Made by a program: the position numbers and the translations under genes
Notes under the pieces: model-generated
What the model saw: only the letters and a program-made list of their open reading frames with translations
Told to the model about the DNA's origin: nothing
The model's database searches: none
Shown: piece after piece, positions 5,928-49,184 of the stretch
How positions within the stretch are numbered: the first letter of the stretch is position 1
How the letters are laid out: every line of letters begins with the position of its first letter
DNA from: an uncultured bacterium
GTDB taxonomy: Bacteria; Patescibacteriota; Patescibacteriia; Patescibacteriales; UBA12465
Length of the DNA stretch: 64,000 bases
Direction: 5' to 3'
Assembly: GCA_903874345.1 (NCBI GenBank)
Contig: CAIQRY010000065.1
Coordinates: 2,679 to 66,678, forward strand

Positions 5928-6383
5928 TTAAACGCCTTCGTAAATTTTAATGGTTTCTCCTTTCGGCAAAGTGACAATCGCTTTCTTCGAATCACTGCGT
6001 TGTCCGCTGATTCGACCGCGCGTCACAAATTTGCCTTTCGATTTAATAATGTTAACCTGGGTCGGATGAACACCGTAAGTATCAGCCACGGCTTTCGCGA
6101 CCGAAATTTTATTGGCACTCGGATTAACAATAAAAACGTATTTATTTTCTGCGCCCAGAATACTGGCTTTTTCCGTAACAAGCGGTTTAATTAAAATGCG
6201 ATAGGAATTGCCGAAGCGTACCGGAGAGACTTTCTTGCCGCTCGCCGTCTTCACGCTTTTAGGCGCTTCGCTATAAAGATCCTGCATCGAAGTCGCCTCT
6301 GGCGCGGCTTTCGGCTTAGCAACCTTAGCAGTTTTAGCCACGGGTTTCTTATCTTCTGTTTTTTTATTTCCAAATAAAGCCAT
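5928..6383 (-). CDS. rplW: 50S ribosomal protein L23 with an N-terminal extension
   Basis: C-terminal roughly 95 aa is L23-like. The first 50-55 aa is a K/A/P-rich extension (a downstream internal start is possible). Confidence 0.88.
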   Translation of the reverse strand: MALFGNKKTEDKKPVAKTAKVAKPKAAPEATSMQDLYSEAPKSVKTASGKKVSPVRFGNSYRILIKPLVTEKASILGAENKYVFIVNPSANKISVAKAVADTYGVHPTQVNIIKSKGKFVTRGRISGQRSDSKKAIVTLPKGETIKIYEGV

Positions 6384-7055: not shown

Positions 7056-7814
7056 TTACTTATTATTTTCAGTCACGTTATTTTCAGTCACGGCTGAAGT
7101 CGCCTCGATATTTTCAGGAGTCACCGCGGGAGTTGTCTCGATATTTTCCTCTACGGCAACTGGCGCTACCGCTTCCGGCGCCGCTTGATTAACGACTAAT
7201 TCTCCCTGACCATTAATCAAAGCTAAGCCATTAATCGCGCCCGGAACCGCCCCCTTGATAAATAAAATATTCTTCGCTTCATCAATACTAATAATTTCTA
7301 AATTAGTCGTCGTGACCCGATCGCCACCCATACGACCGCCCATCCGCGTTCCTTTAAAAACATGAGCCGGACCTTTCGGACCAATGGAACCGCCCATTCT
7401 TTCTTGGTCCTTGTTACCATGTGTTTTTCTAAAACCATGGAAATGATGGCGCTTAACCACACCTTGAAAACCCTTTCCTTTTGAGGTCGCGGTCACATTA
7501 ACAATATCACCGACTTTAAAAGTCTTAACAGTAATCACATCGCCGGCTTTAAAATTAGCCGCCTCTTCCGTTCTAAATTCACGGACATGAGCCGGCAAAA
7601 TATTCAAACTCTTGAAATGGCCTAATTGCGGTTTATTAATATTCTTCGCCTGGCGCGTACCATAAGCCAACTGCAAAGCGTTATAACCGTCTTTAGCTTT
7701 GGTTTTAACCTGAGTAACGACACAAGGACCGGCTTGGACGGGCGTCACGCCAAAAACCTTATCACCGCTCCAGATCTGGGTCATGCTCATTTTTTTACCG
7801 CTGATAAATTTCAT
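7056..7814 (-). CDS. rplC: 50S ribosomal protein L3 with a repetitive acidic C-terminal tail
   Basis: L3 core (FQGVVKRHHFHGFRKTHG). The last 50 aa is a repetitive ENIETTPAVTPENIEATSAVTENNVTENNK tail. Confidence 0.93.
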   Translation of the reverse strand: MKFISGKKMSMTQIWSGDKVFGVTPVQAGPCVVTQVKTKAKDGYNALQLAYGTRQAKNINKPQLGHFKSLNILPAHVREFRTEEAANFKAGDVITVKTFKVGDIVNVTATSKGKGFQGVVKRHHFHGFRKTHGNKDQERMGGSIGPKGPAHVFKGTRMGGRMGGDRVTTTNLEIISIDEAKNILFIKGAVPGAINGLALINGQGELVVNQAAPEAVAPVAVEENIETTPAVTPENIEATSAVTENNVTENNK

Positions 7815-7840
7815 ATGTTTTCTCTCCCTTTTACTAATTA

Positions 7841-7868
7841 AAAATAAAAGCTGGTCCTAGTAACCAGC
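7841..7868 (-). terminator. Hairpin (GCTGGT/ACCAGC stem, 7850-7868) followed by a U-run on the minus strand, just 5' of the rplC RBS. Possible attenuator or terminator between rpsJ and rplC.
   Basis: Perfect 6 bp inverted repeat followed on the minus strand by TTTTATTTTT, then the AAAGGGAGAGAAAAC RBS and ATG of rplC. Confidence 0.45.
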
Positions 7869-8035
7869 GCAAAAAAACTTTAAAACAATAAAAACGGAAT
7901 TTATTTCCAATTATATTATTTTTTATTTAGCGCTGATTTACCTCCAATTTTAGCTAATATTTACTTAAACACTTTCCTTGTTGCCAGAGTTATTCAAGCT
8001 CACATTAGCTTAATTAATATTTCTTTTTTATTCTA

Positions 8036-8371
8036 CTACATTTTTATTTCCACGTCAACCCCGGCCGGTAGGCTCAAATTCGTCAAATCTTCGATGGTTT
8101 TCGCGGTCGGATCAATAATATCAATCATGCGTTTATGAATCCGCATTTCATATTGATCGCGAGCATCTTTATGCACAAAAGTAGAGCGATTAACCGTATA
8201 TTTCCGTTTTTCCGTCGGCAGTGGAATCGGCCCGAAAAATTGGGCGTCGGAACGTTCAATCGTTTCGATGATCGTTTTTGTGGACTGATCAATAATCTTA
8301 TGATCAAAAGCCTTGATCTTGATTCTGATCCGCTGTTTAAATTCTTTTTCGTCTTTTTTGTTGTCGGACAT
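8036..8371 (-). CDS. rpsJ: 30S ribosomal protein S10
   Basis: 111 aa, S10 family ([16 protein letters not shown]). Confidence 0.95.
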
Positions 8372-8398
8372 AGTTAATTTTTTAAATTGACACTACAA

Positions 8399-8422
8399 CC
8401 CCGCCCTTGAGTAAGAGCGGGG
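8399..8422 (-). promoter_or_regulatory. Stem-loop in the tuf-rpsJ intergenic region; possible weak terminator or S10 leader element
   Basis: CCCCGCCCTT-GAGT-AAGAGCGGGG imperfect inverted repeat. The U-run after it on the minus strand is weak (TTGTAGTG). Confidence 0.3.
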
Positions 8423-8438
8423 CAAAGTAACAATTTAA

Positions 8439-9626
8439 TTACTTCAAAATCTTAGTGACCGCGCCCGCGCCGACGGTTCTACCGCCTTCACGAATAGCGA
8501 ATCTCTGCTTCTCTTCCAAAGCAATCGGCGAAATTAACTTAATCGTTAAGTTAACGGTATCGCCAGGCATAACCATTTCCGTGCCGGCCGGTAAAGTAAT
8601 ATCACCGGTCACATCGGTCGTTCTGATATAGAACTGTGGTTTATAGCCATTGAAGAACGGTTTATGACGACCGCCTTCTTCCTTGGATAAAACATAAACT
8701 TCCGCGGTAAATTCAGAATGAGGAGTGATAGAACCTGGTTTACATAAAACCTGGCCACGTTCCACTTCATTCTTTTTTGTACCACGTAGCAAAATACCAG
8801 CATTGTCCCCGGCGCGACCTTCGTCTAATTGTTTATTAAACATTTCGATTCCGGTAACGGTGGTCTTTTTGGTATCCATTAAACCAACCATTTCTACTTC
8901 GTCGCCAACTTTAACGATACCTCTTTCGATACGACCAGTGACCACAGTGCCACGGCCTTCAATCGAGAAGATATCTTCAATCGGCATTAAATACGGTTGA
9001 TCAACGGCACGAACCGGCTCCGGAATATAGTCATCTAAAGCTTTAACTAAATCCATAATCGGCTGGGCATCAGGACCGGTCGGGTTCTCTAAGGCTTTCA
9101 AAGCCGAACCGCGAATAATCGGGGTCTTATCACCCGGGAATTCATATTTCTTAAGTAAATCACGAATTTCTTCTTCAACTAAGTCAATCAGTTCTTTATC
9201 TTCAACCATATCGCATTTATTCAAGAAGACAACGATATAAGGCACACCAACCTGTTTGGCGAGCAAGATATGTTCTCTGGTCTGCGGCATCGGGCCGTCA
9301 GTCGCCGCGACGACTAAAATCGCACCGTCCATCTGAGCGGCGCCCGTAATCATGTTTTTAACATAATCGGCGTGACCCGGACAATCAACGTGCGCATAGT
9401 GACGTTTTTCGGATTCATATTCGACGTGCGCGGTGGCGATGGTAATCCCTCTCGCTTTTTCTTCCGGCGCGGCATCGATTTCCCCGACACCCTTTTTGGA
9501 GGCCTTCATACCCTTGGCGCTTAAAACTGCCAAAAGAGCGGCCGTCAAAGTGGTTTTCCCATGATCAACGTGGCCGATAGTACCGACGTTAACATGGGGC
9601 TTGTTGCGTTCAAATTTGTCTGCCAT
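8439..9626 (-). CDS. tuf: Elongation factor Tu
   Basis: 395 aa with [14 protein letters not shown]-loop, DCPGHADY and NKCD GTPase motifs. Confidence 0.98.
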
Positions 9627-9728
9627 GTTTTTGTTGTACGGCCCCCGTTTCCACGGGGTTTCTTTCCTATATCTAGGAAACCAGCCGAACTTAATTAATT
9701 ATTTTAAATTATTGTAAATTATTTTGTC

Positions 9729-10103
9729 CTATTCTACTTCCTGGGCTTTTTCTTTAACTTGAGACGGAATTTGCCAAGGCTTCTTAGTCTTATTCTCTTC
9801 TCCCAGATACGGTGAATTTTCCCGATTTTTCCACATCGAGATTTCGCGATTAATTTTATCAGTTAAATCTTCTTCTGTCAAATTTTCTAAAATACTGGTT
9901 TTTTCTTTTTCTTTAGCCATTTCCGGAGCCACACTGGCGACCGGATGCGGCTGAGTCAAAACCTTGTTTTCGACCAAGCCGGCGTAATTATTTAAATCCA
10001 TAAGCACATAAGATTCGTCCGGCGTATTATGGTCAAACAGAATCACCCGATCACCGGTCGTCTTAATAAGATTAAGGATTTTTTTTAATTGCTCGGGAAA
10101 CAT
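9729..10103 (-). CDS. Hypothetical protein, 124 aa, embedded between fusA and tuf
   Basis: Clean ORF with a 9-bp gap to the upstream gene. No recognisable motif, acidic/lysine-rich C-terminal half. Confidence 0.55.
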   Translation of the reverse strand: MFPEQLKKILNLIKTTGDRVILFDHNTPDESYVLMDLNNYAGLVENKVLTQPHPVASVAPEMAKEKEKTSILENLTEEDLTDKINREISMWKNRENSPYLGEENKTKKPWQIPSQVKEKAQEVE

Positions 10104-10112
10104 ATATAAAAA

Positions 10113-10766
10113 TTAATTTCTTTGATCTAGCTTCTTCTCGCCGAAATAACGGACAACTCCATTAACCACCGGAACCAACTTTTCGATACAGATAATTTTA
10201 TCTTCTAAGCTTAGTTCTCCATAATCATCTCCATTTTTGAGAGGTTCCGGAATAATACTGCACATACCGAGCAAAAGCTTATAAGCCTCTTCATTCATCT
10301 TCATCTCTTCGCCTGGCAAAAGATTAATCGGGTCAAAATAATTTCTGAATTTAATAACGCCGGTCGCGAAATTAAGACCAAGTCGGTTATGGCTGTAATA
10401 AGCCTGTGCTTCCGGAGAAAGTTGCTCTAAATATTTTCCTTCCCAAACTCGGCGCGCGCCATGATCATCAAAATTATCGGTAATAATCGGGCTATCCAGA
10501 AAAGCTTCCATTTTCTCAAGTAAGCTTTGCAAATTAAGCTTTTCTTGAACACTTAAATTCTTATTGAACAAATTCCAATTCAAAGTAGCGGGTAAAGCAT
10601 CTTTAGCAATTTTTCTCTTCGGCTCCCGAAACTTAAATTCAACGCCTTCAAATTCTTTACCTTTAGCAATTATCTCCTTACGGATACGCATCTCAATCTC
10701 TTCCTTGGTCTCGACTTCTTTAGCCACCGTTTCTTGAACTAAGCTAGAAGAAAACTGCTCATTCAT
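10113..10766 (-). CDS. Hypothetical protein, 217 aa, embedded between fusA and tuf
   Basis: Clean ORF starting 7 nt after the fusA stop. No recognisable family signature. Confidence 0.6.
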   Translation of the reverse strand: MNEQFSSSLVQETVAKEVETKEEIEMRIRKEIIAKGKEFEGVEFKFREPKRKIAKDALPATLNWNLFNKNLSVQEKLNLQSLLEKMEAFLDSPIITDNFDDHGARRVWEGKYLEQLSPEAQAYYSHNRLGLNFATGVIKFRNYFDPINLLPGEEMKMNEEAYKLLLGMCSIIPEPLKNGDDYGELSLEDKIICIEKLVPVVNGVVRYFGEKKLDQRN

Positions 10767-10773
10767 ATATAAG

Positions 10774-12852
10774 TTATTTACCCTTCTTCTCTTTAATCGC
10801 TTCTAAAATATTTCTCGGTACTTCGGCATAATGGGAAAATTCCATGACATAATTCGCGCGGCCTTGAGACATGGAGCGGAGCGAGGTCGAATAACCGAAC
10901 ATTTCGGCTAGCGGCACTTTAGAACGCACTACTTTAACATTCGCCCGATCGGTCATTTCTTCAATCTGACCACGTTTGGCATTTAAATCACCAATAATAT
11001 TACCCATGTATTCTTCCGGAGTCGTGACTTCCACTTTCATAATCGGTTCAAGTAAAACCGGACCGGCTTTCTGACAAGCATCTTTAAAAGCAAAGATAGC
11101 CGCGAGTTTAAAAGCAATTTCTGAAGAGTCGACTTCATGATAAGAACCGTAGAAAACCGCGGTCTTAACATCGACCATGGGATAACCGGCTACCACGCCA
11201 GACAACATCCCTTCCTTAACACCTTTTTCAATGGCCGGAATATATTCACGCGGAATGACGCCACCCTTAACTTCATCGGCAAATTCATAACCTTTACCGG
11301 TTTCGAGCGGTTCCACGCGCAAGGAGCAATGACCATACTGACCGCGACCGCCAGACTGCTTAACATATTTATGTTCCGCTTCCGCCACTTTAGTAATGGT
11401 TTCGCGATAGGACACTTGAGGATTACCGACGTTCGCTTCCACGCCAAATTCACGGCGCATACGATCAACGATAATTTCCAAATGCAATTCGCCCATACCG
11501 GAAATCAGAACCTGATTGGTTTCGGTATCGGTTTCGACTCTAAAAGTCGGATCTTCTTCCGCCAAGCGCTGTAAAGCAACGCCCATTTTTTCCTGGTCCG
11601 CTTTGGTCTTCGGTTCAACCGCAATCTTAATAACCGGTTCCGGAAAAGTAATGGATTCTAACAACACTTCCGTACTTTCATCACATAAAGTATTACCGGT
11701 TGTCGTATTTTTCAAACCAATCACGGCCGCGATATCCCCGGCGTAAATTTCTTTAATTTCTTCACGATGGTTCGCGTGCATGCGCACTAAACGACCGACT
11801 CTCTCCTTAGTTCCCTTCGAGGAATTAACGATGTAAGAACCAGCGGTGAGTACGCCCTGATAAACGCGGACGAAACAAAGCTTACCGACAAAAGGATCAG
11901 TCGCAATTTTAAAAGCTAAACCAACAAAAGGTTTTGAGTCGTCCGGTGTTACCTCTACTTTTTTATCTAGATCGCGCACTTCCGTCGCTTCAATGGGCGG
12001 CACATCAAGTGGTGAAGGTAAATATTCAACGACCGCGTCGAGTACTAATTGGACGCCAATATTCTGTAAGGCAGTGCCGCACAAAACCGGATATAAAGAA
12101 TTACTAATCACGCCTTTTCTGATTGCCGCTTTTAATTCGTCGAGGCCAACTTCCTGACCGTTCAAATATTTTTCCATGGACTTTTCATCGCATTCCACGG
12201 CTTTTTCCACTAATTCATTATGAAATTCATCAACCTTCTTTTTCATGTCTTCCGGAATATCAATCTCTTTAATATCCATGCCGTTAAAACCAGAAAAAGT
12301 ATAGGCCTTCTTCTCTAAAACATCGATCACGCCGCTTAAATTGCTTTCCGCGCCGATCGGTAATTGAATCGCGACTGCTTTCGGATTTAAACGTTTGCGA
12401 ATCGAATCCAAGCTCATATAAAAATCCGCCCCCATCTTATCCATCTTATTGACGAAACATAAACGCGGGACATGATATTTATCCGCTTGGCGCCACACGG
12501 TTTCGGATTGCGGTTCCACGCCGGCCTGGCCGTCAAACACCGCGACTGCGCCGTCTAAAACGCGCAGTGAACGTTCGACTTCGACCGTAAAATCAACGTG
12601 CCCCGGAGTATCAATAATATTGATTTTCTTAGTTTTCCAAAAACAAGTTGTGGCGGCGGAAGTAATGGTAATGCCTCTTTCCTTCTCCTGTTCCATCCAG
12701 TCCATTTCGGCCGCGCCTTCGTGCACTTCGCCGATTTTATGTTTCTTACCGGTATAAAACAAAACGCGCTCGGTAAAAGTGGTTTTGCCGGCGTCAATGT
12801 GCGCCATAATACCAATATTTCTAGTGTCGTGTAGAGAATAGTCTCGGGGCAT
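10774..12852 (-). CDS. fusA: Elongation factor G
   Basis: 692 aa, [10 protein letters not shown]-loop, full five-domain EF-G length, str operon position. Confidence 0.98.
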
Positions 12853-12890
12853 AATTATTGTTGAAAATTAAATTTATTGTTTATTTCGTC

Positions 12891-13358
12891 TTAACGAGAA
12901 AAATGCGCAAAAGCCTTATTCGCTTCCGCCATCTTGTGAACCGCTTCTCTCTTTTTCGCGGCCGTCCCTTCGCCATTTGAGGCATCTAAAATCTCGGCGG
13001 CTAATTTCTCGGCCATACTGCGACCACGACGGTCGTTAGCGGCATCAATAATCCAATTACAAGCTAAAAAATAACGGCGTTCACCTCGGACCTGAAAAGG
13101 AACCTGATAGTTGGCGCCGCCGACGCGTTTGCCTCTCACCTCCACTAAAGGAGAAACTTTTTTAATCGCTTTATTAAAAATATGGCGCGGATCCTGTTTT
13201 GTCTTTTCTTTTAGGATTTCAAAAGCGCCATAAACAATTTTTTCCGCGGCACTCTTTTTCCCGCGTTCCATGACGTAATTAATAAATTTAGCGATATTAA
13301 TATCGGTATATTTAGCATCGCCTTCAATAGTTCTTTTAGGGGCTGGTTTACCTCTCAT
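12891..13358 (-). CDS. rpsG: 30S ribosomal protein S7
   Basis: 155 aa, S7 family. Confidence 0.95.
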   Translation of the reverse strand: MRGKPAPKRTIEGDAKYTDINIAKFINYVMERGKKSAAEKIVYGAFEILKEKTKQDPRHIFNKAIKKVSPLVEVRGKRVGGANYQVPFQVRGERRYFLACNWIIDAANDRRGRSMAEKLAAEILDASNGEGTAAKKREAVHKMAEANKAFAHFSR

Positions 13359-13370
13359 ATGTTTAAATTA

Positions 13371-13790
13371 TTATTTCTTTGGTTTCTTAGCACCGTAGCA
13401 ACTGCGGCCCTGACGTCTCGCGTCAACACCGGAAGCGTCAAAAACGCCACGGACAACTTTATAACGAACACCCGGCAAATCCTTGGTCTTCCCGCCTTTA
13501 ACTAAAACGATGGAGTGTTCCTGTAAGTTGTGGCCCATGCCCGGAATATAAGCAGTCACTTCCATGCCATTAGATAAGCGGACGCGCGCAATCTTACGTA
13601 AAGCGGAGTTCGGCTTTTTCGGCGTCGTTGTGGTTACCTTTAAGCAGACCCCTTGTTTAAAAGGCGCCCCTTTGGCAGTTTCTTTTTTCCGGCGATGCAG
13701 AGAATCCAGGCTCATATGTAAAGCCAAAGAATTACGTCTCTTGCCGATTGATTTGCGGCCCTGGCGGACCAGTTGATTAACGGTAGGCAT
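13371..13790 (-). CDS. rpsL: 30S ribosomal protein S12 with a roughly 15 aa internal insertion near the N-terminus
   Basis: [13 protein letters not shown]...[13 protein letters not shown]...; 139 aa against the usual about 124, with extra sequence between the N-terminal segment and the GVC...[10 protein letters not shown] block. Confidence 0.93.
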
Positions 13791-13808
13791 AATTTAAATA
13801 TTAAAATA

Positions 13809-13826
13809 ATCCTGAAGTCTCAGGAT
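13809..13826 (-). terminator. Perfect hairpin (ATCCTGA-AGTC-TCAGGAT) between the M50 protease gene and rpsL; possible terminator or promoter-proximal element
   Basis: 7 bp perfect inverted repeat with T-rich flanks on both strands. Confidence 0.35.
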
Positions 13827-13906
13827 GTGCTATTTTTACACTAATTTAATTTAACAAAATAGAAAACATAAGTCAAGGTCATCCGTCTCATCATTTTTAG
13901 CCAAAA

Positions 13907-14527
13907 TTAGGAAGCGCCGGCAATAAGCCTAAACAAGAAATTAACAACGGGGATAAAAAAGCTACCGAAAAGCATAACGAGCAAAATCACTAAGATAAAG
14001 CCGGTTCGATCAAGCCTTAAAAAACGCTCTTTGGCTTGAGGCGATAAAAAACAGGCTAAAATCTTAGATCCGTCAAGAGGAGGAATAGGCACTAAGTTGA
14101 AAACCATTAAGACTAGGTTAATATAAACGATAATTGCCAATAAACCGTTAAAGGCTAGGCTATACATGGGCATAAAACGCAAAATAAGCCCGAAAAACAA
14201 GGCAATTATCAAATTGGCCAGGGGTCCAGCTAAGGCGACCTTAGCGTCACCGAATTTACGGTCACGTAGATTATACGGGTTATAAGGCACCGGTTTAGCC
14301 CAACCAAAGACAAAACCGAAATTGGCAATAATCATAATTAGGGGTAAGAAAAAAGACCCGAACCATTCCAGATGCGCCAAAGGGTTTAAGGTCAATCGAC
14401 CAGCGTCTTTTGCCGTACTGTCTCCGAGACGATAGGCCATCCAGCCATGCATATATTCATGGACGATCGCGGAAAATATTAAGACGATTACTTCAAAAAC
14501 ATAAATCATATGCCTATATCTTAGCAT
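13907..14527 (-). CDS. Site-2 protease family (M50) membrane zinc metalloprotease
   Basis: HEYMH zinc motif in TM1, NLVPIPPLDGSK (LDG motif), multi-pass hydrophobic profile, 206 aa. Confidence 0.8.
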   Translation of the reverse strand: MLRYRHMIYVFEVIVLIFSAIVHEYMHGWMAYRLGDSTAKDAGRLTLNPLAHLEWFGSFFLPLIMIIANFGFVFGWAKPVPYNPYNLRDRKFGDAKVALAGPLANLIIALFFGLILRFMPMYSLAFNGLLAIIVYINLVLMVFNLVPIPPLDGSKILACFLSPQAKERFLRLDRTGFILVILLVMLFGSFFIPVVNFLFRLIAGAS

Positions 14528-14600
14528 AACTTGATTATTTTTTAAAATCTTGTTAAGATAGGGGTGATTTTTAAATAACTATTTGTTAGATATCAAACTT

Positions 14601-18079: not shown

Positions 18080-18231
18080 TAAGACATCTTAGCCGGAAAC
18101 GGCTAAATTGTCAAAATGCTAAAGTGCGTAACTTTTCAACGCTTTACTTGCCTAAAGAGTGCTCTTATGCTAATGTGAGGACGTTTCAAAAACTTGATTT
18201 GTTCATTTCACAATTACTAAATAAATGCCCC

Positions 18232-48128: not shown

Positions 48129-49184
48129 ATGAAAATTGCTTTACTCAACAATTTATATGAGCCTTTTAACCGCGGCGGCGCGGAAAAAGTCGTTTCTCTC
48201 CTGGCCCAGGATTTTATTAATCAGGGCCACGAGGTTTTTATTATTACGACTAGACCAATAAATGCAACCGAACCGAAGATCGATTCGCTTAAAGTTTATT
48301 ATCTCCCGTCCCGCTATTATGACTTAAACAGGCTTTCAAAAATGGCGCGTTTCTTTTGGCAGGTCGGGAATGTCTTTGATTTGGTCCAGACGAAAAAAGT
48401 GAAGGCCATCCTAAAAAAAGAGAAACCGGATTTAATCTCCACTCATAATCTCATGGGCCTAAGTTTTTTAACCCCGCGTCTTATCCGTTGCTTAAAAATT
48501 CGTCAGGAACATTATCTCCACGATATTCAGCTACTTCACCCCTCCGGTCTGATGTTTTACGGCCAAGAAAAAAAAATAGATTCCCTGTCCGCTAAATTTT
48601 ATCAATTATTCACCCGCTGTTTCTTTGCTTCCCCGGTCAAAGTAATTTCTCCGTCCGAGTGGCTTATGGAACAATATAAACAACGCGGTTTTTTTCGCCG
48701 TTCCGAATTAGAAGTTAGACCTTTTAAATTAGCACCGGAACAAAAAATAGTTAATCAGCCAGCGAGAACGAGCGGCCGCCATTTCCTCTACGTCGGTCAG
48801 ATGGAGGATCATAAAGGGATTTTCTTATTAATTAATGCTTTTAAAAAATTACCAGATAAGCAGGCAAAACTTATTATGGTCGGCGACGGCACTAAATTAT
48901 CAAGGGCCAAGGAACAAGCCTCAACCGACCAAAGAATTAGTTTTTGGGGTAAGTACCAGGGCCAGGAATTAGAAAAGCTCATGGCCCAAAGCGACTACTT
49001 AGTAATTCCTTCTCTGTGTTATGAAAATTCGCCAACCACTATTTTAGAAGCCCATGCTTGCGGCGTCCCGGTTATCGCCGCGCGTATCGGAGGAATTCCG
49101 GAGATTACCAATCGGGACGATAAATTATTTGAACCTGGGAATGAGACGGACTTACTCAATAAATTGCAATCTCAACCTTCTTGA
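48129..49184 (+). CDS. GT4 family glycosyltransferase
   Basis: 351 aa; ENSPTTILEAHACGVPVIAARIGGIPE. Confidence 0.8.
   Translation: MKIALLNNLYEPFNRGGAEKVVSLLAQDFINQGHEVFIITTRPINATEPKIDSLKVYYLPSRYYDLNRLSKMARFFWQVGNVFDLVQTKKVKAILKKEKPDLISTHNLMGLSFLTPRLIRCLKIRQEHYLHDIQLLHPSGLMFYGQEKKIDSLSAKFYQLFTRCFFASPVKVISPSEWLMEQYKQRGFFRRSELEVRPFKLAPEQKIVNQPARTSGRHFLYVGQMEDHKGIFLLINAFKKLPDKQAKLIMVGDGTKLSRAKEQASTDQRISFWGKYQGQELEKLMAQSDYLVIPSLCYENSPTTILEAHACGVPVIAARIGGIPEITNRDDKLFEPGNETDLLNKLQSQPS

Follow-up and report, generated by a model that had tools for sequence, protein, structure and literature searches.

Why are two uncharacterised genes inserted between fusA and tuf, the genes for the elongation factors EF-G and EF-Tu, in the str operon of an uncultured bacterium of the Patescibacteriota? 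The locus lies on contig CAIQRY010000065.1 (assembly GCA_903874345.1), within a window of 64,000 nucleotides (nt), which is the whole stretch of DNA that was analysed and to which the coordinates refer. An earlier sequence-only reading had placed two open reading frames (ORFs) of 217 and 124 amino acids there, on the same strand and with gaps of 7 and 9 base pairs (bp), and the ORF list together with the sequence confirms this.

10766-10113, minus strand: ORF217, 217 amino acids, ATG start (ORF list and sequence)
10103-9729, minus strand: ORF124, 124 amino acids, ATG start (ORF list and sequence)

The gap of 7 bp separates fusA from ORF217, that of 9 bp separates ORF217 from ORF124, and 102 bp lie between ORF124 and tuf. 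We find it likely that the locus is a module specific to one clade, the Falkowbacteria-type Patescibacteria, with the order fusA, optional ORF217, ORF124, leader RNA and tuf. ORF124 is the constant element of this module, both ORFs are genuine genes, and some of the ORF124 codons most likely have a second use as a tuf promoter embedded in the gene.

The embedded promoter was found by a consensus scan. It matches the sigma-70 consensus at 11 of 12 positions and has in addition the TG at -15/-14. The codons that contain it, and a few that follow, are frozen at all three positions.

9853..9881, minus strand: predicted sigma-70-type promoter in ORF124 codons 75-84; -35 element TTGACA at 9881-9876, spacer of 17 nt, extended -10 TG at 9861-9860, -10 element TAAAAT at 9858-9853
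9840..9884, minus strand: ORF124 codons 74-88, frozen at all three codon positions; the promoter and ~15 nt of initially transcribed region (AATCGCGAAATC)

The promoter codons encode the most conserved motif of ORF124, NLTEEDLTDKIN (LT-x5-DKI), and the stretch AATTTGACAGAAGAAGATTTAACTGATAAAATWAATCGCGAAATC is almost invariant across 50 species. The predicted start of transcription is near 9847, ~220 nt ahead of the tuf ATG. A per-codon table shows how strict the constraint is: all 62 species read TTG at Leu75, ACA at Thr76 and GAT at Asp82, whereas the other Leu and Thr codons of ORF124, which serve as an internal control, use several synonyms. Variation within the -10 hexamer is confined to its weakly constrained middle positions (AAA, AAG, AGA), and the third base of Ile84, the first after the hexamer, is free (ATA in 33 and ATT in 29 species; identity 0.53). 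Third-position identity is 0.8-1.0 over codons 74-88, compared with 0.3-0.7 at equally conserved residues elsewhere in ORF124. In distant relatives, with 34-39% protein identity, the nucleotides and residues of the spacer differ, while TTGACA, TG and TA..AT are kept at the same spacing. Since the hexamers are kept and the spacer has diverged, the sole protein feature found throughout the ORF124 family, LT-x5-DKI, is the promoter read as protein. The same motif recurs in the window, where TTGACA-N14-TGnTAnnAT is found in 8 copies compared with 0.2 expected, a 40-fold excess. Each of the seven further copies is followed, after 7-248 nt, by a gene on its own strand; these copies are at 18086, 21816, 25152, 27451, 34083 and 37813 (minus strand) and at 49181 (plus strand). 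From the sequence patterns, TTGACA-17-TAAAAT in ORF124 is most likely an active internal promoter of tuf.

Two details are seen directly downstream of the promoter. At 9840-9852, AATCGCGAAATC, which belongs to an imperfect palindrome (ATCGCGA-AA-TCTCGAT), is frozen in the core clade, its rare Arg codon CGC included, but not in the distant relatives. Codon 90 of ORF124 (9836-9834), located ~12-14 nt past the predicted transcription start, is ATG, TTG or GTG in 45 of 62 species. As this codon is start-like, the internal transcript could carry a small upstream ORF for the last 35 residues ahead of tuf.

Outside the frozen codons, ORF124 is constrained as a protein. In a codon alignment of 62-63 species, positions 1 and 2 are conserved in codons 1-40 and 100-124, and the third position is free at conserved residues; at T16, V20, V33, P113, V116 and A120 the third-position identity is 0.3-0.55 despite the conserved residue. 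Selection thus acts on the protein. The frame is open in all relatives despite many insertions and deletions in the linker, all of which are multiples of three. ORF124 is therefore a genuine gene and more than a chance ORF, and on the per-codon third-position pattern the idea that it is spurious is rejected. In ORF217 the nucleotide differences by codon position are 0.57/0.46/0.66, and 53% of the identical-residue pairs have different codons. This pattern, with its frequent synonymous substitutions, fits a coding sequence, and ORF217 too is a genuine gene rather than a chance ORF. Accordingly, both ORFs have what the sequence-only reading had said would be lacking if it were wrong, i.e., homologues and a coding signal in relatives.

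The database contains 295 relatives of ORF124 at 47-68% identity. The distribution was determined by scanning one genome per GTDB species, and this gave 69 loci with an ORF124 relative. The fetched DNA includes both flanks at 63 loci, and in every one of these the homologue is located between fusA and tuf. The other six lie at a contig end, where the surviving neighbour is the expected one, and no locus contradicts the arrangement. The conservation of the insertion, which had been proposed as a check, is therefore found in all 69 species for ORF124 and in 13 of 69 for the ORF217 family. In most species ORF124 is alone in the slot, at 1-180 bp from fusA. The identical arrangement is also present on public metagenome contigs of up to 400 kb, and the relatives are labelled Candidatus Falkowbacteria or 'Patescibacteria group'.

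The spacer between ORF124 and tuf contains a conserved structured RNA.

9636..9690, minus strand: conserved structured 5' leader of tuf; an outer helix GGC/GCC encloses the hairpins UUUCCU/AGGAAA and CCCCG/CGGGG, which are joined by GAAA

Its layout is GGCUGG-UUUCCU(loop)AGGAAA-GAAA-CCCCG(loop)CGGGG-GCC, and from there an A-rich stretch without a Shine-Dalgarno sequence leads to the ATG. RNAalifold run on the leader alignment returns the outer helix around two hairpins. In our own alignment 97.8% of the cells are paired, with 26 compensatory cells compared with 6.0 in shuffles, and the pairing falls to ~60% when the partner columns are slid. In an alignment of 69 sequences fitted to a covariance model, 10 of the 16 pairs covary and 47 cells are compensatory (8.8 in shuffles). 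The covariance model itself finds exactly one match per locus, always before tuf, and this includes the most distant relatives. A search of the window region 7800-14600 against the 4227 families of Rfam 15 gave no match at E<=1. Two other ways of looking at the leader were discarded. A leader hairpin that would serve the sense strand as an intrinsic terminator or as an attenuator is rejected, as there is no U-tract and the terminator-like call at 9643-9658 is antisense. The single-sequence fold of the predicted internal transcript of 249 nt did not reproduce the covarying leader structure and was not used.

The three elements occur together. ORF124, the embedded promoter and the leader are all present in 69 of 69 loci, and all three are missing from the lineage represented by locus L079. 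There, the leader is absent and tuf is preceded by an intergenic promoter instead, TTGACA-16-TATTAT. From this joint occurrence and joint absence we infer that the three elements are inherited together.

We suggest the following mechanism. The operon promoter upstream of rpsL would make a long transcript that includes ORF217 and ORF124, and the promoter inside ORF124 would add transcripts that start ~220 nt before tuf. These added transcripts would run through the three-helix leader RNA and could raise the output of EF-Tu over that of EF-G. More EF-Tu than EF-G is needed in the cell, and this fits extra transcription of tuf. The overlap between coding sequence and promoter would also lock ORF124 in place, because the embedded promoter must travel with the gene. 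As the overlap can by itself explain the position of ORF124, its synteny is weak evidence for a function in translation. The use of the operon position as a pointer to function, as in the sequence-only reading, is thus weakened for ORF124. ORF217 is absent from most species, but its family recurs in the slot even where ORF124 is missing, and a link to the elongation-factor genes may therefore exist. Co-transcription with both elongation-factor genes had also been expected. The part concerning fusA is likely to be right, since both ORFs are on the operon strand and a scan of the window sequence found no terminator-like site on the minus strand between fusA and tuf. However, part of the tuf transcription probably starts inside ORF124, and therefore the locus is not one simple polycistronic unit.

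ORF217 is a member of a large and divergent family. An exhaustive hidden Markov model (HMM) search gives 375 cluster representatives at E<=1e-3, of which 89 remain at E<=1e-10; a word-indexed protein search returned only 3-5 matches, a strong under-report, so that the exhaustive search is needed for this family. One relative in the same slot has 41% identity. In other genomes the space between fusA and ORF124 is occupied by divergent proteins of 197-236 amino acids that have a common core, PI[IF]TDxFxxDHxxRRxWE ... YYxxNRLxxN ... YxxLxxEEKI. A gene of the family is present in 13 of the 69 species with ORF124 and absent from 56. The presences are scattered on a rough tree of EF-G and EF-Tu, which fits an ancestral gene that was lost many times. 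Sampling of the wider family adds two distant members in the same fusA-X-ORF124-tuf arrangement and three remote members in unrelated neighbourhoods. In the lineage without ORF124 (L079, 557-2280), fusA is followed by an unrelated ORF of 132 amino acids, two tandem paralogues of the ORF217 family and then tuf. The AlphaFold2 model of ORF217 is a mainly helical domain with a small sheet, with a predicted local distance difference test score (pLDDT) of 82.8 and a predicted template modelling score of 0.75. Neither the protein nor the family alignment matched anything in Pfam, NCBIfam, PDB profiles, PHROGs, PADLOC or BFVD. A HEPN-type toxin or RNase was considered and rejected, as the catalytic motif Rx4-6H that such proteins carry in a four-helix bundle is absent. 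ORF217 is probably a fast-evolving ancestral accessory protein, helical and from an orphan family, that has been lost repeatedly and is dispensable in most lineages.

In ORF124, alignments, the AlphaFold2 model and the codon table distinguish four parts.

Residues 1-46, minus-strand gene: domain with weak likeness to Phd/YefM
Residues 47-73, minus-strand gene: variable, disordered linker
Residues 74-93, minus-strand gene: conserved helix (NLTEEDLTDKINREISMWKN)
Residues 100-124, minus-strand gene: conserved tail (W110-x-I-P ... VK-x-KA)

Selection at the level of the protein acts on the N-terminal domain, on the linker and on the C-terminal helix and tail alike. The AlphaFold2 model, built with 120 sequences, has an overall pLDDT of 66. 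Residues 4-46 are modelled at pLDDT 85-89 as alpha-beta-beta-alpha (helix 4-16, strands 20-23 and 32-35, helix 37-46). The linker is disordered in the model at 49-72 (it varies in length over residues 47-73), and helices follow at 79-92 and, a short one, at 114-120. Searches of Pfam, NCBIfam, PHROGs and PADLOC gave nothing above threshold for ORF124. The earlier statement that neither ORF has a recognisable domain holds, apart from one sub-threshold match of ORF124 to PhdYeFM_antitox (PF02604), at 14.1 bits and E=0.042, below the gathering threshold of 29.8 bits. Matches to PF02604 that are sub-threshold and always in the same register are seen in 39 of 120 ORF124 members, the best with E=2e-4. 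Four of five very distant members match at 18-22 bits (E=1e-4 to 2e-3), and over the family the E-values range from 1e-4 to 4e-2. The aligned segment covers profile positions 10-52, and the first beta strand of the beta-alpha-alpha-beta-beta fold, with which these antitoxins dimerise and bind DNA, is absent. Searches of PDB profiles with the family alignments of ORF124 and ORF217 returned chance-level matches only, such as UMP-CMP kinase and snRNP27K. Overall, the HMM and structure searches that had been recommended ended with no significant match for either ORF.

ORF124 resembles the type II antitoxins of the Phd/YefM group (PF02604) in being small, in the N-terminal helix-strand-strand-helix that aligns to profile positions 10-52 in many members, and in the disordered C-terminal half, a segment of which is conserved and could become folded on binding to a partner. 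It differs in that it scores below the Pfam cut-off, lacks the first beta strand and has no toxin gene of a known family next to it. Further, its gene has a fixed place in an essential operon and shows no mobility, and the motifs of its C-terminus are not related to the corresponding ones of Phd or YefM. A cognate toxin gene (Doc, YoeB or RelE type) was not found beside ORF124, which is flanked by tuf and, on the fusA side, by either fusA itself or ORF217. ORF217 in turn matches no toxin family in Pfam, NCBIfam or PADLOC and is missing from most genomes. The relationship is therefore a lead and not a family membership. Our best guess, held with low confidence, is that ORF124 acts as an antitoxin-type adaptor or regulator, because it combines a small folded domain at the N-terminus with a disordered linker and with conserved segments at the C-terminus. 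As part of this guess, the N-terminal domain would dimerise and may bind DNA, the C-terminal tail would fold onto a conserved partner connected somehow with expression of the str/tuf region, and ORF217 would be an optional partner of ORF124. The N-terminal domain and the tail are strongly conserved in the 56 species without ORF217. As the protein is selected with and without ORF217, ORF124 has a role of its own.

How do other explanations compare with the module described here? The sequence-only reading had suggested that both proteins may be lineage-specific factors that act in translation or are associated with the ribosome. In this view translational coupling keeps their production matched to that of EF-G and EF-Tu, and the position of the genes reflects their function. 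This agrees with the common strand, the 7- and 9-bp gaps and the lack of a terminator, with the presence of ORF124 in the slot at all 69 loci and with the purifying selection on both ORFs. The ORF217 family between fusA and tuf even without ORF124, there as two tandem copies, also speaks for it. However, neither protein resembles a ribosomal protein or a translation factor in sequence or fold, and the promoter overlap can account for the fixed position of ORF124. ORF217 is missing from 56 of 69 species and has remote members in unrelated contexts, and such frequent loss is not expected of a factor needed at amounts matching EF-G. No homology, fold match or annotated relative links either ORF to translation; taken together, we regard such a role as unlikely. 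An ORF124 that is no functional protein at all, only an open frame persisting over conserved regulatory DNA (promoter and leader), could explain why its most conserved 'protein motif' is really the promoter and why it has no annotated relative. This explanation is largely refuted by the coding signature in codons 1-40 and 100-124 (e.g. V33, T16, P113, A120), and it also has to face the frame that stays open in all relatives with linker indels in multiples of three and the confidently modelled N-terminal domain. We give it hardly any credence.

The patchy ORF217 and the universal ORF124, in a tight two-gene arrangement, could also be the remains of a domesticated toxin-antitoxin-like cassette in the str operon. 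ORF217 would then be toxin-like and ORF124 a Phd/YefM-type antitoxin, with the toxin repeatedly lost and the antitoxin kept as the carrier of the tuf promoter. The recurrent weak PF02604 matches and the antitoxin-like build, a folded N-terminus with a disordered C-terminus, are in line with this. However, PADLOC has no match, the gene order is opposite to that of Phd-Doc and YefM-YoeB, and the module was never seen to be mobile. In the 56 species where ORF217 is missing, ORF124 still has a strongly conserved N-terminal domain and tail, which indicates a function of its own, and we judge such an origin to be rather improbable. It can also be speculated that ORF124 supplies the protein component of a self-contained feedback device that sets the EF-Tu:EF-G ratio. 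Its Phd/YefM-like domain would bind its own embedded promoter DNA or the leader RNA, and its tail would sense a translation component such as EF-Tu; in a variant, the last 35 codons from codon 90 would be translated as a regulatory leader peptide for tuf. We consider this a long shot.

Several points weigh against the module with an embedded promoter and an antitoxin-like ORF124. Both the activity of the promoter and its start site are predictions from the nucleotide sequence. In the core clade the promoter spacer and ~15 nt downstream are also frozen, a constraint that a plain promoter does not need; a superimposed protein-binding site or an RNA element may lie there. A conserved A/T-rich stretch just upstream of the leader could be a second, proximal promoter. 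Such a conserved proximal promoter in the A/T-rich spacer was considered and rejected, as no -35 element is consistent across species. The presence of the ORF217 family in the fusA-tuf slot without ORF124 suggests that its link to the elongation-factor genes may be a functional one. The likeness to Phd/YefM never reaches the Pfam cut-off (best 22 bits compared with 29.8), and hhalign of the ORF124 profile gives a weak E=0.011 for E. coli YefM and nothing for Phd, with reference sequences entered by hand. The ORF124 model is of low overall confidence (pLDDT 66), and Foldseek finds no significant relative in PDB. Finally, any partner of ORF124 or ORF217 is hypothetical.

If the module is as we describe it, it is related to several known systems. 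In the str operon of E. coli, secondary tufA promoters inside the coding region of fusA were reportedly found by Zengel, Lindahl and others around 1990. As in the ORF124 case, a promoter inside a coding sequence upstream of tuf adds to the transcription from the operon promoter. The differences are that here the host gene is a small clade-specific ORF and not fusA, that a structured leader follows and that the promoter is predicted from sequence. The predicted promoter is also near-perfect in consensus, invariant throughout the clade, and dictates the most conserved protein motif, LT-x5-DKI.

The overlap of regulatory elements with neighbouring genes or units has been described as making gene order hard to change (2019, PMC6735719). 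In that case, as for ORF124, the regulatory element of a downstream unit overlaps the upstream unit. However, in that case a terminator overlaps with a promoter and both are in intergenic DNA, while the ORF124 promoter is inside a coding sequence and constrains the protein itself. The present window adds a second case of a promoter in coding sequence, at the end of rpsJ (see below). Autoregulation through the tufB leader in Salmonella is mentioned in the same paper as a cited result. Like the 5' leaders of other genes of the translation machinery (the ribosomal-protein leaders in Rfam and Salmonella tufB), the tuf leader lies in the 5' untranslated region of a strongly expressed gene and has a conserved structure with covariation. 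Unlike these, it has no counterpart among the 4227 Rfam families, and it lacks both a terminator-like U-tract and a Shine-Dalgarno sequence that could be masked.

The locus is a variant of known themes, and what makes it notable is less the inserted genes as such than a coding sequence with two uses and a new leader RNA. ORF124 would be a clean case of dual coding, with a ten-residue protein motif that is invariant clade-wide and is the translation of a -35/-10 promoter. As LT-x5-DKI is the promoter, strong amino-acid conservation and strict synteny can come from regulatory DNA and not from protein function. The window also provides a promoter consensus for uncultivated Patescibacteria, TTGACA-17-TGnTAnnAT, in a setting of long leaders and infrequent Shine-Dalgarno sequences. 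The two protein families and the tuf leader RNA, all without annotation, are new objects at a place where the cell sets its EF-Tu level. If it were true that ORF124 regulates its own embedded promoter or the leader, this would amount to a new way of controlling elongation-factor stoichiometry.

The surrounding genes follow the order rpsL-rpsG-fusA-ORF217-ORF124-tuf and then rpsJ and rplC, all on the minus strand, according to the six-frame ORF list and the sequence.

13848..13876, minus strand: candidate primary str-operon promoter, TTGACT-17-TGnTAAATT, 58 nt upstream of rpsL (consensus scan)
13790-13371, minus strand: rpsL (ORF list and sequence)
13358-12891, minus strand: rpsG (ORF list and sequence)
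12852-10774, minus strand: fusA (EF-G), the upstream neighbour (ORF list; Pfam EF-G domains on an identical contig)
9626-8439, minus strand: tuf (EF-Tu), the downstream neighbour, on which the embedded promoter and the leader presumably act (ORF list)

A literature search for a fusA-tuf arrangement of this type in Patescibacteria found nothing relevant, and an exact cluster look-up returned no names. ORF217 and ORF124 start as ..atatATG without a Shine-Dalgarno sequence, which is typical of the genes in this window: at ~20 gene starts the Shine-Dalgarno is mostly absent and an A/T-rich stretch precedes the start codon, often as ..atATG.

Some loci show individual features. In two distant relatives (L073, 2362-3888, and L074, 1781-3935), genes for prepilin-like proteins with a large C-terminal domain lie between fusA and the ORF124 homologue; the slot thus tolerates other cargo. 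In L064 and L065 the spacer between the ORF124 homologue and tuf is 414-442 nt compared with the usual ~100 nt, and L065 has an extra open frame there. In L028 (1294-3386) fusA is found in two frames, a match to residues 1-452 and then a separate ORF of 240 amino acids that is the C-terminus, probably through a frameshift or an assembly error.

Downstream of tuf, a second promoter overlapping coding sequence, TTGACG-17-TAGAAT, lies across the end of rpsJ (8030-8058, minus strand). Its -35 element is within Gly-Val-Asp codons (GGG GTT GAC), in which the synonymous sites are frozen in 55 loci, and the double stop TAGTAG follows. The spacer between rpsJ and rplC is 220 nt long (7815-8035), contains a terminator-like hairpin at 7868-7850 and may be an attenuator or a leader for the rplC operon. 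Two ribosomal proteins encoded further on have extensions, i.e., a repetitive acidic one at the C-terminus of uL3 (7056-7814) and a long Lys/Ala-rich one at the N-terminus of uL23 (5928-6383).

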